Source of the DNA: Dehalococcoidia bacterium
GTDB taxonomy: Bacteria > Chloroflexota > Dehalococcoidia > Dehalococcoidales > E44-bin46
NCBI GenBank assembly: GCA_004376105.1
Contig: SOKA01000091.1
Location: forward strand, 1-55,851
Direction: 5' to 3'
DNA: 55,851 nt
Positions 47,211-50,575 of this stretch are shown one piece after another; position 1 is the stretch's first letter; every line of letters begins with the position of its first letter. The notes under the pieces were generated by a model. The model saw only the letters and a list, made by a program, of their open reading frames with translations, searched no databases and was not told the DNA's origin. The position numbers and the translations under genes are program-made.

Positions 47211-47241
47211 AAGAATAAAAGAGGCTGAACTAGGTTCAGTC
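47211..47241 (-). terminator. Possible terminator at the end of the GroEL/PAC2 operon
   Basis: Short stem CTGAAC-cta-GTTCAG on the minus strand (extendable with a G-U pair), followed by CCTCTTTTATTCTT. It overlaps the stop codon. Confidence 0.4.
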
Positions 47242-48057
47242 CCCCCTTTTTTCGAGAAGTTCACTTACTTCTTTAGCCAATTTCATTTGCTCGTCTTCGC
47301 CTAGAGAAAGTCCCCTCTCTAGTATTCCTATGCATTCATTAACCTCTGAATTTTCCTCTCTTAGCTGAGCTATCTTTTCATTTTGTCTCCTGATCTCCAA
47401 GTCTAACTCGCCCAAATCCAGATCCAAGTTAAACCTCCTATCTAGAAAAGAAAGGGATAGCTTTATTGCCTCAGGGTCCTCTTTGGTAGCCAAGTAAAAC
47501 GGGACTTCAGGCCAAAGACTGGCTCCGGGAATGCCTCTTCTTTGAGCCACCCATAAAAGGCAACTGCTGATAGCTGGTGGTCCTTCCCAGTCCATATCTT
47601 CAAGCCCATAGCTTCGAAGTCCTTCTTGAAATTGCGACTGATTAGAAACTGTCAATATCCTTCGAGGGGTAGTATGGGCGATTGAGGAAACGGTTCCGCT
47701 GACAGTATAAAGCTCTTTTGCCTTACAATGATATTCAGCGAAATCTAGAACCGTATTTAAAAATTTATACCATTCATACTTAGGTCCATTGCTCTTAAAG
47801 ATTAAAAGATTATTTTTCTCACAAGCCCAGAATTTGCTTTCTGGAATCTGGATTAAATCATCTTTAAATACTGCTCCACCTAGTGGGAAAAAGCCTAAAG
47901 GTTTGACCTCTCCAACTTCTAAGCCTCCCAGTTTTTCTTTCAAGAAATTAGTGACTTTAGACCCTATCTTTCCAATATCCCGAGTTTGCCAACCTACAAT
48001 TAAAGATGGACTTTGAAGCTGGGAAGTTCGGTAGACCTCAAACAGGTTTTTCTCCAT
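47236..48057 (-). CDS. PAC2 (proteasome assembly chaperone 2)-family protein, divergent copy
   Basis: SPSLIVGWQTRDIGKIGSKVTNFL is a degenerate version of the PAC2 N-terminal motif. The C-terminal tail is coiled-coil. The start is placed at MEKNLF, overlapping the upstream gene by 20 nt. Confidence 0.6.
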   Translation of the reverse strand: MEKNLFEVYRTSQLQSPSLIVGWQTRDIGKIGSKVTNFLKEKLGGLEVGEVKPLGFFPLGGAVFKDDLIQIPESKFWACEKNNLLIFKSNGPKYEWYKFLNTVLDFAEYHCKAKELYTVSGTVSSIAHTTPRRILTVSNQSQFQEGLRSYGLEDMDWEGPPAISSCLLWVAQRRGIPGASLWPEVPFYLATKEDPEAIKLSLSFLDRRFNLDLDLGELDLEIRRQNEKIAQLREENSEVNECIGILERGLSLGEDEQMKLAKEVSELLEKRGD

Positions 48058-48955
48058 CTTCTTTGTCTCCTTTTTTAAAGAGTTCATCGATATGTTCTTC
48101 AATCCATTTGGCATCCTCTTCGGTTATTGCTCCGGGCTCAACCTGAGTAATGAATTTTCTTTGGTCATACTTTTCTTTCATCTCTGAGGGAAATTTCTCA
48201 TAGATCTTCTCAATAATCTCTTCTATCTGAGTAGTCATATAATCGAGAGCCATAAAATCAATCCTAATTCTGAGAATCTCGGCAAAAACCTCAAGTACCG
48301 ACTTTGAAGCTTTGGGGTAGGGCTGAGGAACTTGAGAGAGCCAATCTGGTATTTCTCCCATTAGACAAATACTTTCTAATCCTCGCTTTTTAGCTACTGC
48401 CAATAAAAGACCATTCAAGCCGGTGATAACGCCTTCGCCTACCTTCCCTTCCATCTGACTCATCAAAATTGTATTTTGATATTTCTTTACTTCCCTGGCT
48501 AGCGTCTCTGAACTTACTACCGCACGGACTCTTGGTTTCATCTGGTGATGAATTAGTGAAACACAGGCTCCTGAAGTATAAACTCTCTGGCAACCAAACT
48601 CTAAGCCTACATCTAAAACGAGATTAGCCATCTGATAAGCCTTTTCTCCTTTACTATAGGCTCCCTCTCCTTCAGTTGGCTGCTGTTCTCCAATGAAAAA
48701 TATCAAATCTTTCTCCTCAACCCTCTGGTAATAAAATTTGTTAGTCGGGAATTTTAAATCTTCCATCAAACCATTTTTGATTGAAACCTTCCGAGGATAG
48801 AAGAAATCCCAAGGCTCTATTTCTCCAAGCTCTTCTGCCTGAAGCTGACCTCGTAAAGTGTCGACAGCAATTATTCCGACGTTTCCAATCCCTGGCCAAC
48901 CAACAATCAGATCCGGTTTTTCAAGTTTCGGTTCTTTATAAAGTTTGATTGTCAT
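48038..48955 (-). CDS. PAC2-family protein, canonical copy
   Basis: KPDLIVGWPGIGNVGIIAVDTLRGQL matches the archaeal PbaA/PbaB-type G-x-PG-x-G-x-VG motif. It starts 15 nt downstream of groEL. Confidence 0.7.
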   Translation of the reverse strand: MTIKLYKEPKLEKPDLIVGWPGIGNVGIIAVDTLRGQLQAEELGEIEPWDFFYPRKVSIKNGLMEDLKFPTNKFYYQRVEEKDLIFFIGEQQPTEGEGAYSKGEKAYQMANLVLDVGLEFGCQRVYTSGACVSLIHHQMKPRVRAVVSSETLAREVKKYQNTILMSQMEGKVGEGVITGLNGLLLAVAKKRGLESICLMGEIPDWLSQVPQPYPKASKSVLEVFAEILRIRIDFMALDYMTTQIEEIIEKIYEKFPSEMKEKYDQRKFITQVEPGAITEEDAKWIEEHIDELFKKGDKEDGEKPV

Positions 48956-48970
48956 CTTTTTATATATGCC

Positions 48971-50575
48971 TTAGTATTGTGATGGAGGAGGCGGTAGCTT
49001 CTCCTTCTCAGGAATGTCAGTAATCAGGGATTCAGTAATTAGTAACATAGCCGCCACACTGGAAGCGTTTTGAAGAGCGGTGCGGGTTACCTTCAGCGGG
49101 TCGATAATACCCTTCTCTTCCATCTTGCCATATTCTTCCTTAACGACATCATAGCCAAAGCCAGGTTCTGACTTCATTACCCTGTCCAAAACAACCGAGC
49201 CTTCCTGACCAGCATTAGCTGCTAGCATCCGCAAAGGCTCCTCAAGAGCCCGCCTAACGATATTAGCACCGGTTGCCTTATCACCTTCAAGGGAAAGTTT
49301 ATCGAGAGCAGGTAGAGCGTTGATAAGAGCTACCCCTCCACCAGGCAAAGTCCCCTCTTCAGTAGCCGCCCTGGTTGCTGAGAGGGCTCCTTCAACACGG
49401 CGCTTTCTATCCTTAAGTTCAACCTCGGTTGGTGCTCCAACCTTGATTACCCCAACACCACCAGCCAGCTTGGCTAACCTCTCCTGAAGCTTCTCTCTAT
49501 CATAATCGGATGTTGTCTCCTCAATCTGGACTTTTATCTGCTTTAGTCTTGCCTGGATTAATTCCTGAGAGCCTTTGCCTTCAACAATGGTGGTGTTGTC
49601 CTTATCAGCTACTACCCGTCGGGCTTGACCTAAATCGTCTACAGTGACTGAGTCAAGCTTCCTCCCCTTTTCCTCAGTGATAACCGTGCCTCCTGTCAGG
49701 ATAGCCACATCTTCAAGCAGTGCCTTTCTTCGGTCGCCGAAGCCAGGTGCCTTGACGGCCAGGCAATTGAGAATCCCCTTGAGCTTATTCACCACAAGAG
49801 TTGCCAGAGCTTCTCTCTCAACATCCTCGCTGATGATAATAATGTTCTTACTTATTGCGCTTACTTTCTCTAGGCAGGGTAAGAGGTCAGAGACAGCCGA
49901 GAGCTTCTTATCGGTGATAAGAATGTAGGGGTCATCAATTGATGCCTCCATCTTTTCAGCGTCAGTTATGAAGTAGGGGCTGATGTAACCTCGGTCAAAC
50001 TTCATCCCCTCCACATACTCGGTCTCAAATCTTATGCCTTTGCCTTCCTCTACGGTAACGACCCCGTCTTTACCAACCCTATCCATGACCTCCCCGATAA
50101 TCTCGCCGATTTCAGGGTCGTGAGCAGTAATAGCAGCAATCTTAGTCATCTGCTCCTTGGTGGTTACTGGCTTTGCCACTCTTTTTAGCTCATCAATAAT
50201 ACAGGCCGTAGCCTTTTCCATGCCACGCTTTAGAGCCATAGCATCAGCCCCGGCAGCAATATTCTTAAACCCTTCCCGAATCATGGCTTGGGCAAGAACG
50301 GTAGCAGTGGTTGTTCCATCACCAACGTCATCGCTTGTTTTCTTAGCTACCTCTTTGATAAGAGAAACTCCCATATTGGCAAAGGGGTCTTCTATCTCAA
50401 TTTCTTTGGCTACTGTAACCCCGTCATGGGTACTGGTTGGTGGACCAAATTTTTTGTCCAGGACGACATTCCGCCCTCTGGGACCAAGGGTAACCTTCAC
50501 CACATCGGCTAGTGTATCAACACCCCTTTTGAAATACTCCCTTGCTTCCTCATCAAAGACTAATTGCTTTGCCAT
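48971..50575 (-). CDS. groEL: Chaperonin GroEL (Cpn60)
   Basis: [52 protein letters not shown]. The start is placed at MAKQ rather than the upstream ATG. The C-terminus is [13 protein letters not shown], with no GGM repeats. Confidence 0.92.

Follow-up and report, generated by a model that had tools for sequence, protein, structure and literature searches.

The window analysed here, a 55,851-nucleotide stretch of a Dehalococcoidia bacterium (contig SOKA01000091.1 of assembly GCA_004376105.1), carries a chaperonin gene, groEL2, followed on the same strand by two genes of the PAC2 family, PAC2A and PAC2B, an arrangement that an earlier sequence-only reading had proposed to be a specialized GroEL/PAC2 chaperonin/co-chaperone module. 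In the direction of transcription, the locus comprises the following features.

50672-52870, minus strand: GT4 glycosyltransferase and nucleotidyl-transferase/hexapeptide fusion gene (PF00534 2e-29, PF00483 1.6e-50), the upstream neighbour
48968-50668, minus strand: 1.7-kb block of groES remnant plus groEL2, present or absent among close relatives and skipped by one X9 contig
50657-50666, minus strand: left copy of a 10-bp imperfect direct repeat, AGGTATATAT, at the block edge, read directly from the sequence
50560-50658, minus strand: groES remnant, a 32-codon open reading frame with the GroES mobile-loop motif ILPDTAKEK in its middle
48971-50575, minus strand: groEL2, 534 aa, full-length GroEL equivalog (PF00118/Cpn60_TCP1 2e-73; TIGR02348)
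48962-48971, minus strand: right copy of the direct repeat, AGGCATATAT, overlapping the groEL2 stop codon and the spacer before PAC2A
48038-48955, minus strand: PAC2A, 305 aa, PbaB-like (PAC2 7.1e-35), with a GWPGIGNVG loop and a C-terminal extension of about 54 residues
47236-48114, minus strand: PAC2B, a diverged paralogue of 273-292 aa depending on the start (48114, 48087 or 48057; PAC2 3e-26)
47225-47239, minus strand: terminator-like hairpin and T-run directly past the PAC2B stop codon, a weak match from a consensus scan
46747-47002, minus strand: downstream cluster of tRNA-Leu, tRNA-Arg and tRNA-Val, given for context

The fusion gene and the groEL2 ATG at 50575 are separated by 96 nt, with AAGGAG placed 6 nt before that ATG, and the 15-nt gap reported earlier between groEL2 and PAC2A is confirmed by the sequence. 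The two PAC2 genes do overlap, as had been described, but the figure of 20 nt depends on the start at 48057; the starts at 48087 and 48114, which give overlaps of 50 and 77 nt, fit the nearest homologues no worse. The hairpin past PAC2B is weak, the terminator scan having returned 8 sites against 6.6 expected in shuffled sequence, and in the relative L048 a HAD hydrolase occupies the place of the tRNA cluster. The one RNA-library contig that extends past the groEL2 stop codon stops only 13 nt inside PAC2A, and it could stem from DNA carry-over.

GroEL2 and the chaperonin genes of the genome

GroEL2 is an intact chaperonin by all profile measures, scoring 778.9 bits against TIGR02348 (curated equivalog cut-off 582.1) and covering positions 1-488 of the 490 in PF00118 (2e-73). 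It is 68% identical to GroEL1 of its own genome, and its nearest named GroEL matches in the database bear Chloroflexi/Dehalococcoidales labels. Its dN/dS of 0.09 against the near-identical metagenome contig L045 and 0.04 against the related genome G173 indicates purifying selection. Although the Gly-Met-rich C-terminal tail of GroEL is common, it is not universal; GroEL2 ends in ...PPPPSQY and, as noted before, lacks it. This is not the peculiarity of one copy that it had seemed, because GroEL1 and the GroEL2 orthologue of G173 lack the tail as well, making its absence a trait of the clade.

Genome-wide profile searches returned one match to PF00166 and two to PF00118. A canonical groES-groEL1 operon lies on a separate contig, C89, with a CIRCE element (1 mismatch) just upstream of groES1, a finding that counts against a GroEL2-specific module. 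The CIRCE/HrcA operator is a regulatory feature of many groESL operons; the window holds no CIRCE-like repeat anywhere at up to 3 mismatches, in agreement with the earlier remark that none was seen upstream of groEL2. The description of groEL2 as having no groES upstream and a 96-nt gap likewise stands in that no intact groES directly precedes it, the single intact copy of the genome being that on C89, but the spacer is not empty: it holds a groES remnant, 5'-truncated and internally deleted as judged from the sequence, BLASTP and DNA alignment.

Compared with GroES of G173, the remnant is identical at 11 of 25 residues (BLASTP E 3e-6, a single comparison), and DNA alignment with the intact groES-groEL of that genome shows that some 205 nt of groES are missing ahead of the groEL2 Shine-Dalgarno sequence. 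Among 30 relatives, G173 alone encodes a GroEL2 orthologue (83% identical), with an intact groES directly upstream. The remnant shows that groEL2 started inside an ordinary groESL operon. Extra groEL copies without an adjacent groES occur elsewhere, for example as groEL2 of actinobacteria and cyanobacteria. Like these, the present copy is full-length, apart from groES and without the CIRCE of the main operon; unlike them, it is very young at its site, retains a groES stump and is present or absent among close relatives.

A probable young insertion beside the PAC2 pair

The site also occurs without groEL2 in relatives. In L046, whose PAC2A is 90% identical to that of the window, a glycosyltransferase gene stands directly before PAC2A with no groEL between them, and the C-terminus of its product is 86% identical to the fusion protein of the window. 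In a sediment metagenome (run X9), one contig with a depth of 2.2 joins position 48967 to 50669, skipping 1701 nt that correspond exactly to 48968-50668, while a groEL2-bearing contig from the same run has a depth of 12.3, so both forms occur in one sample. The direct repeats at the two block edges match at 9 of 10 letters, and no mobile-element gene was found within the 1.7-kb block. Outgroups point to insertion here rather than loss elsewhere as the direction of the event; the groEL-less X9 form, seen in a single low-depth contig, may instead have arisen by secondary deletion between the repeats.

The possibility that the adjacency is a chimera of metagenome assembly deserves mention, given that the genome is a 91-contig bin and that one sample contains close relatives of both kinds, some with groEL2 and some lacking it. 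We rejected it, leaving it next to no weight: runs of three other studies yielded independently assembled contigs that cover the tRNA-PAC2B-PAC2A-groEL2 stretch without interruption (X2 record 10, 3311 nt with 11 differences; X9 record 24, 2970 nt; X4 records 16/17), which shows that the arrangement is not an assembly artefact, and L045, from another collection, has the same junction.

Across other loci the linkage is not maintained. Sequence extends at least 300 nt upstream at 107 other PAC2A loci, and groEL occupies that position in one of them, L045, whose PAC2A is 88% identical to that of the window; none of 28 other genomes of the class shows the linkage. G173, the one relative with a GroEL2 orthologue, has no PAC2A orthologue, either near groEL or elsewhere in its genome, and the five PAC2A-bearing relatives have one groEL apiece. 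The sequence comparisons make it most likely that groEL2 beside the PAC2 pair is a young adjacency confined to this lineage and not a dedicated folding machine.

A dedicated machine, the interpretation offered by the sequence-only reading, would have the PAC2 heteromer replace or supplement GroES, and several observations speak for it. The three genes lie on one strand with a 15-nt spacing and a terminator-like hairpin only after PAC2B; comparison with L045 shows all three to be under purifying selection while linked; sediment metagenomes from several studies contain the linked form; and, as PbaB-type proteins can bind unfolded proteins (PMC3605417), a hand-off from holdase to foldase is conceivable. 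Against it stand the linkage counts given above and the absence of the arrangement in L046, 90% identical in PAC2A, together with the G173 orthologue that has its own groES in a genome without PAC2A and the groES remnant that points to an ordinary groESL origin. Moreover, GroEL2 equals GroEL1 in sequence at the YISPYF, LLP-LE and ALATLVVN stretches, which we take to be the GroES- and substrate-binding face of GroEL. We regard such a machine as very unlikely, and as a conserved system it is close to refuted. By the test that the sequence-only reading set for itself it fails: groES is encoded elsewhere, alongside a second groEL, and the PAC2 linkage is not conserved. Of the earlier note as a whole, the observation is thus confirmed and the interpretation partly supported, and effort on a hypothesis tied to a single lineage can be spared. 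The recurrence of the groEL2-bearing form in several studies, together with purifying selection, nevertheless suggests that the new operon, though young, may be useful to the lineage.

We favour, as the probable explanation, two unrelated things side by side: an inserted spare groEL2 and an autonomous, proteasome-independent PAC2A-PAC2B hetero-oligomer. The intact spare chaperonin gene would have come out of the groES-groEL operon of a Dehalococcoidales-type lineage on a 1.7-kb fragment with a damaged groES, which entered the short spacer between the glycosyltransferase gene and PAC2A. GroEL2 would most likely work with the single GroES of the cell, encoded with groEL1 behind CIRCE on C89, and would probably be transcribed with its new neighbours outside CIRCE control. 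With a groESL fragment, a groES stump, flanking repeats and both filled and empty sites in one sediment sample, the locus offers a clean natural case of a gene entering an operon.

The PAC2A-PAC2B pair

Both PAC2 proteins belong firmly to family PF09754 (gathering cut-off 25.8 bits), PAC2A with 121.2 bits over positions 1-214 of 215 and PAC2B with 93.0 bits over positions 6-214. They are 28% identical, with a degenerate glycine loop in PAC2B, and their profiles align with hhalign at an E-value of 6.8e-41 over 267 columns that include the C-terminal tails; these tails, earlier described as coiled coils, are predicted, at low confidence, to be helical. Whichever gene lies upstream, the two stay together: where the sequence runs on for at least 300 nt downstream, PAC2B adjoins PAC2A at 103 of 104 loci, and besides the pair itself no neighbour cluster exceeds 12 of 116 loci. 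Nearby genes in the same direction are a mixed set (MnmG, NifU, MFS, metallo-beta-lactamase and others), and neither a recurring protease gene nor a conserved metabolic gene was found among the neighbours. In the class, 29 of 151 genomes have a PAC2A orthologue, consistently within families, whose number includes none of 9 genomes of the window's own family. Judged by these distributions, the conserved unit is the PAC2A-PAC2B pair, most likely old and autonomous, with a patchy but wide spread in uncultured anaerobic bacteria.

Structure prediction supports binding of the two proteins to each other. Models of the PAC2A-PAC2B complex reached a median score of 0.66, the best of 3 controls 0.00; among solved complexes 116 of 157 attain that mark, among mismatched pairs 2 of 215, counts that hold only roughly here because the alignments were our own. 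Runs agree in at least 90% of contacts with partner pLDDT of at least 84, and place residues 49-67 of PAC2A against residues 115-117 and 155-191 of PAC2B. The PbaB tetramer makes the corresponding contact through its beta4-beta5 hairpin (PMC3605417), so the success of the model may reflect likeness to that solved structure. The earlier suggestion that one canonical and one divergent copy recall a heteromeric PAC pair gains support from the 103 of 104 adjacency and from the model passing its controls.

Among proteins of solved structure, PbaB (PDB 3VR0) is also the best match to PAC2A, with a profile E-value of 1.8e-29 over residues 2-254, and both carry a C-terminal extension beyond the core, which in PAC2A is predicted to be helical. 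In Pyrococcus furiosus, PbaB is a homotetrameric, ATP-independent proteasome activator with holdase activity, for which ATP-independent suppression of aggregation through the C-terminal helices has been measured (PMC3605417). The hairpin through which it tetramerizes is the contact used in the predicted complex (PMC3605417); however, in place of a homo-oligomer the window encodes two diverged paralogues that score below the curated cut-off of 200 bits for the archaeal PbaB family TIGR00162 (PAC2A 122.4, PAC2B 36.6), neither has an Hb-Y-X end, and no proteasome was detected in the 93% complete genome. A heteromer of two distantly related PAC2-fold paralogues is known from the proteasome assembly chaperones PAC1-PAC2 of eukaryotes and Pba1-Pba2 of yeast (PMC3605417, abstract), and the present pair, adjacent in nearly all loci and predicted to bind, would resemble it. 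The eukaryotic pair uses HbYX ends for docking on the alpha ring of the 20S precursor, whereas the window has neither these ends nor alpha or beta subunits.

The best profile matches of PAC2B are actinobacterial: Streptomyces 3MNF (6.2e-25), Rv2125 (5UN0; 7.2e-18) and Rv2714 (2WAM; 1.5e-13), which with Cgl1923 (2P90) are bacterial PAC2-fold proteins. They are dispersed paralogues in proteasome-bearing actinobacteria or their relatives rather than an overlapping gene pair. That PAC variants exist in proteasome-less Chloroflexi is already in print (Fuchs et al. 2017, PMC5666114), a remark that agrees with our placement of PAC2A near archaeal PbaB and of PAC2B near the actinobacterial proteins; the passage concerned mentions no tandem A-B pair, heteromer or spread outside Chloroflexi.

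Possible functions of the pair

Because characterized family members act on the 20S proteasome (PMC3605417), the pair might still help to assemble or activate HslV, Anbu or an unrecognized ring protease whose gene lies elsewhere. The earlier observation that the window encodes no proteasome subunit is borne out and extends to the whole genome, PF00227 having no match in the window or in the entire 978-kb assembly (G000, a 91-contig bin), though at 93% completeness a proteasome-like gene could sit in the missing part. A single PF00227-type match does occur in 9 of the 28 other PAC2A-bearing genomes, and G179 also has one; the remaining 19 lack it, five of them closed single-contig genomes. Both PAC2 proteins, which end in ...KPV and ...RGD, lack the HbYX docking motif, as had been stated, and Tyr at position -2 is found in 0 of 108 PAC2A and 3 of 83 PAC2B homologues. 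The absence of these ends and the closed genomes without a proteasome-family gene argue that the pair does not act on a proteasome, and no protease gene recurs beside it. The Anbu paper also notes PAC variants in Chloroflexi without a proteasome (PMC5666114). We consider a ring-protease role improbable.

Conservation is markedly uneven between the two proteins. PAC2A, with a dN/dS of 0.18-0.23 and a mean column identity of 67%, keeps D83, Q92, T127, H136, H137, N181 and E201 as well as the WPGIG loop invariant over 63 sequences; PAC2B has lost most of these polar residues, averages 52% and retains only 9 invariant columns. Such an asymmetry is typical of pairs of active and inactive subunits, and it would suit PAC2A as an enzyme or ligand-binding protein with PAC2B as its degenerate, non-catalytic partner, in a function unrelated to protein folding. 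The invariant residues fit an enzyme or a very conserved binding partner alike, and the single-chain model (pLDDT 57.8) is too poor for pocket analysis. We know of no catalytic activity for any PAC2-family member and found no conserved metabolic neighbour, and think an enzyme unlikely.

We return to the favoured autonomous pair, which would most likely be a hetero-oligomer held together by the beta-hairpin contact known from the tetramer of archaeal PbaB. Our best guess at its activity is that the C-terminal helical tails bind unfolded or unassembled proteins independently of ATP, a holdase role suggested by analogy because the C-terminal helices of PbaB suppress aggregation (PMC3605417) and the tails of PAC2A and PAC2B are homologous. 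Taken further, PAC2A-PAC2B might be a stand-alone chaperone, independent of any proteasome and built as a hetero-oligomer, such as a PbaB-like A2B2 tetramer bearing helical 'tentacles', and exchanged horizontally among anaerobes of several phyla, with the captured GroES-less groEL making a new holdase-plus-foldase operon outside CIRCE/HrcA control. We hold this extended scenario to be a long shot; if true, it would be a newly formed chaperone operon in a natural marine-sediment Dehalococcoidales population in which the inserted form and the empty one still coexist.

Conserved and apparently heteromeric, the pair is a well-defined target for the role of PAC2-fold proteins without a proteasome, and the answer would bear on whether the ancestral role of the fold was that of a chaperone or holdase or lay in proteasome assembly. 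Closed genomes of cultivable-size Dehalococcoidia that lack any proteasome-family gene contain it.

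Gene layout and the chaperonin genes of the genome

The genes considered here run in tandem on the minus strand, in the order glycosyltransferase fusion gene, groEL2, PAC2A and PAC2B, where PAC2A and PAC2B denote two paralogues of the PAC2 (proteasome-assembly-chaperone-like) family and groEL2 is distinguished from groEL1, the canonical copy of the genome:

50672-52870, minus strand: fused GT4 glycosyltransferase/nucleotidyl-transferase gene
48971-50575, minus strand: groEL2, 534 aa (Pfam Cpn60, 2e-73)
48038-48955, minus strand: PAC2A, 305 aa (Pfam PAC2, 7.1e-35)
47236-48114, minus strand: PAC2B, longest ORF (Pfam PAC2, 3e-26)
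47225-47239: terminator-like hairpin 3' of PAC2B, a weak hint from a consensus scan
beyond the hairpin, downstream of PAC2B: three tRNA genes

The spacers measure 96 nt on the 5' side of groEL2 and 15 nt between groEL2 and PAC2A, and an AAGGAG motif stands 6 nt upstream of the groEL2 ATG. Genes, spacings and families were thus recovered as the sequence-only reading had described them. The start of PAC2B is ambiguous: the longest ORF (the equivalent of 48114) is kept in the nearest relatives, most other homologues use the equivalent of 48087 and the most distant ones a start near that of 48057, the one assumed in the sequence-only reading. Promoter and terminator scans of the window gave counts similar to those of shuffled sequence and serve as weak hints only.

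Seven contigs of a metatranscriptome run (X18) fall on parts of PAC2A, groEL2 and the tRNAs, among them 48247-48649, inside PAC2A, and 48943-49151, which covers the 3' end of groEL2, its stop codon, the spacer and 13 nt of PAC2A and may derive from DNA in the library. A contig counted as bridging the groEL2-PAC2A junction if it covered 31 nt on each side of it, and none in this one run did so. Since the overlap is too short and DNA may be present, co-transcription of groEL2 and the PAC2 genes is something that we infer from their 15-nt spacing. In contig 48943-49151, which comes from a related strain, the C-terminal tail of GroEL2 has a 3-nt insertion in its proline run (CGG after 48982, plus strand), so that tail length varies between strains.

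The window is contig C2 of the assembly (978 kb in 91 contigs, rated 93% complete), which contains one groES and two groEL genes. An ordinary groES-groEL operon, the counterpart to the GroES-less gene of the sequence-only reading, is present on contig C89, where groES precedes groEL1 and a CIRCE-like repeat (the HrcA operator, 1 mismatch) lies immediately 5' of groES; with up to 3 mismatches allowed, the window has no such repeat. Additional groEL copies that lack a groES partner are known. GroEL1 and GroEL2 are 68% identical, and both lack the Gly-Met tail. With 778.9 bits, GroEL2 clears the curated cut-off for GroEL equivalogs (582.1 bits); it is under purifying selection (dN/dS 0.09 against the metagenomic-set locus L045 and 0.04 against the relative G173) and has in common with GroEL1 the stretches YISPYF, LLP-LE and ALATLVVN, which form the GroES/substrate-binding face. 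The closest GroELs in protein databases are 74-98% identical to GroEL2, the named ones being labelled Chloroflexi or Dehalococcoidales, and related loci are labelled Dehalococcoidia.

The 96-nt spacer also carries a 32-codon ORF (50560-50658) whose middle resembles the mobile-loop region of GroES (motif ILPDTAKEK). A GroEL2 orthologue (83% identical) exists in just one of 30 relatives, G173, where an intact 103-codon groES stands directly 5' of groEL; the spacer ORF matches this GroES at 11 of 25 residues (E 3e-6 in a single BLASTP comparison). Aligned as DNA with the intact groES-groEL of G173, the window keeps the mobile-loop stretch, followed by a gap of about 205 nt and then by the groEL ribosome-binding site and start. 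Judged by these alignments, groEL2 is a displaced copy out of an ordinary groESL operon. Taken together, the groES remnant, the groESL of G173, the equivalog score, the purifying selection and the stretches common to GroEL1 make GroEL2 look like a working GroEL, served by the one GroES remaining in the genome.

Distribution and age of the groEL2-PAC2 adjacency

Relatives of PAC2A were collected at 118 loci besides that of the window. Species-representative genomes supplied 4 of these, 150 further genomes of the class 28, the 30 relatives 5 new ones and metagenomes 80; the last, L155, is the same genomic place as another member, L009, and further duplicates may be included. A groEL lies 5' of PAC2A in only 1 of the 107 other loci with at least 300 nt upstream, namely L045 (PAC2A 88% and GroEL2 fragment 91% identical to the window), and the fetched flanks of the 118 loci hold no groEL elsewhere. 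At a locus with a PAC2A 90% identical to that of the window (L046), the 3' end of the glycosyltransferase gene (86% identical) is followed after about 33 nt by PAC2A, and groEL is absent. A contig of another run (X9, depth 2.2) passes from 50669 to 48967 via five different letters and so skips exactly 1701 nt, corresponding to the groES stump plus groEL2, while another X9 contig (depth 12.3) carries this block; its edges bear a putative repeat, AGGTATATAT (50657-50666) and AGGCATATAT (48962-48971). Conversely, G173 has no PAC2A orthologue at E <= 1e-60, and five relatives that bear PAC2A (G055, G160, G161, G163 and G167) have one groEL each.

The adjacency of groEL and PAC2 genes is therefore young and local to one marine-sediment lineage, a recent juxtaposition rather than the specialised chaperonin/co-chaperone module suggested by the sequence-only reading, and groEL2 and PAC2A do not co-occur across relatives as such a module would have it. 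The same distribution could in principle arise if groEL2 had been lost everywhere else; insertion at this site would be the simpler reading. A chimeric assembly is out, as contigs from runs of three other studies span the arrangement continuously. Fourteen runs contain half or more of the words sampled from the stretch, and most of these runs are labelled marine sediment or sediment metagenomes.

The downstream side of PAC2B is also variable, because a close relative (L048) has a HAD hydrolase 3' of PAC2B and no tRNAs there. In all DNA runs, summed contig depth over the tRNA cluster of the window (46700-47113) is very high and loose ends are numerous, as expected for conserved tRNA genes common to many organisms.

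The PAC2A-PAC2B pair and its independence of the proteasome

The pair itself is more interesting than its adjacency to groEL2. PAC2A and PAC2B are 28% identical, and their profiles align over 267 columns that include the C-terminal tails (hhalign E 6.8e-41). PAC2B follows PAC2A in 103 of the 104 loci that extend 300 nt or more downstream; only L015 differs. Every other ORF cluster near the pair occurs in at most 12 of 116 loci. A survey of the neighbours (735 ORFs clustered from the loci, 18 representatives scanned against Pfam) revealed no recurrent partner, chaperone or protease; co-directional neighbours within 200 nt were MnmG (7 loci), an unnamed protein (5 loci) and NifU, MFS, CxxCxxCC and other proteins (at most 4 each). 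PAC2A-PAC2B is thus the unit that is conserved. A protein of about 220 aa without a Pfam family (cluster 3) stands beside the pair, in varying orientation, in 10 Dehalococcoidia loci (L007, L008, L015, L017, L023, L028, L034, L035, L037 and L043).

PAC2A is remarkably well conserved and matches 2719 database proteins at E <= 0.001, many of them about 70-75% identical, and its ESM Atlas clusters contain PAC2 proteins only, mostly from Chloroflexota. Within the class it is present in 29 of 151 genomes, patchily yet consistently within families (for example 5/5, 3/3, 3/3 and 4/4), with 0 of 9 in the window's own family; PF09754 of some kind occurs in 146 of the 151. Some matches are labelled Desulfobacterales or Deltaproteobacteria MAGs, and one locus is titled Nitrospirae. 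The spread of PAC2A outside Dehalococcoidia is read from such MAG labels, because the species-representative genomes contributed 4 loci and, in the phylum of one PAC2A-bearing genome (G179), only G179 itself has the gene among 121 genomes.

The sequence-only reading, which saw no proteasome subunits in the window, had proposed a search of the genome for them; this 93%-complete genome contains no match to PF00227, the proteasome-family profile that covers proteasome, HslV and Anbu types. Across the class, PF00227 occurs in 45 of 151 genomes, nearly always as a single match, as would be expected of HslV- or Anbu-like genes but not of paired alpha and beta subunits. The profile has no match in 19 of the 28 other PAC2A-bearing genomes, including five closed as single contigs (G055, G079, G098, G116 and G133). 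A penultimate tyrosine, the signature of the HbYX proteasome-docking motif, is found in 0 of 108 PAC2A and 3 of 83 PAC2B sequences, and neither protein reaches the curated cut-off for TIGR00162, the archaeal family. The pair exists independently of a proteasome.

The best matches among solved structures are archaeal PbaB for the PAC2A profile (3VR0, 1.8e-29) and actinobacterial proteins for the PAC2B profile (3MNF, 6.2e-25; Rv2125/5UN0, 7.2e-18). These likenesses agree with a remark by Fuchs et al. 2017 (PMC5666114) on PAC variants in Chloroflexi without a proteasome, by which the bare existence of such genes is already in print. We found no description of a tandem bacterial PAC2 pair in the literature covered, which excluded subscription journals. 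PAC2A-PAC2B represents a bacterial variant of the PAC2/PbaB family that is new and apparently heteromeric and exists without a proteasome.

The third PAC2 gene of the genome (PAC2C, 1426-2145 of locus L004, minus strand; 40% identical to PAC2A and truncated at the end of contig C5) has immediately after it a gene for a 305-aa HEAT-repeat protein (491-1408, minus strand) with weak NblB/PBS-lyase-like matches. This pairing recurs in 16 of 29 PAC2C loci of other class genomes, including 16 of the 17 closest, and adds to the PAC2A-PAC2B pair another conserved PAC2 partnership, likewise in genomes without a proteasome-family match.

A predicted PAC2A-PAC2B complex

Modelling of PAC2A with PAC2B from paired 63-row alignments gave a median score of 0.66, with 0.00 for the best of three controls; of 157 solved complexes 116 attained this mark, as against 2 of 215 mismatched pairs, counts that apply only roughly because the model was built on our own alignments. 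Between runs, 90% or more of the contacts coincide, the partner pLDDT is at least 84, and the confident predicted contacts place PAC2A 49-67 against PAC2B 115-117 and 155-191. According to PMC3605417, PbaB tetramerises through a beta4-beta5 hairpin set against a strand of the next subunit; the predicted contact resembles this mode, and the model may have passed its controls partly through likeness to the solved PbaB structure. A single-chain AlphaFold2 model of PAC2A (32-sequence alignment) was poor (mean pLDDT 57.8).

The same source reports that PbaB needs no ATP to suppress the aggregation of citrate synthase and rhodanese denatured by heat, an activity that depends on its C-terminal helix. 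PAC2A and PAC2B carry homologous C-terminal extensions of about 40-55 residues past the Pfam domain. On the strength of the model, the PbaB findings and these tails, the two proteins would probably form a proteasome-independent, PbaB-like hetero-oligomer whose tails would bind non-native or unassembled proteins, the holdase part being possible but less likely than not. The main alternative would make PAC2A an enzyme, or a factor with a very conserved binding partner: it has invariant His-His, Asp, Gln, Thr, Asn and Glu positions, most of which are lost in PAC2B. Column identity averages 67% in PAC2A and 52% in PAC2B over 63 paired sequences, and dN/dS is 0.13-0.23 for both alike.

Elsewhere in the window, a plus-strand cluster (44038-46722) comprises HcyBio (PF01837, 5e-153), a NIL-ferredoxin gene, a 242-aa ORF without a Pfam match and a second, stand-alone NIL-domain gene, similar to the homocysteine-biosynthesis clusters of methanogens. 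On the minus strand, an alanyl-tRNA-synthetase-like ORF (53825-55834) contains a zinc-ribbon-like CxxC...CxxC motif and a lysine/histidine-rich segment, which together look like a mid-protein insertion.
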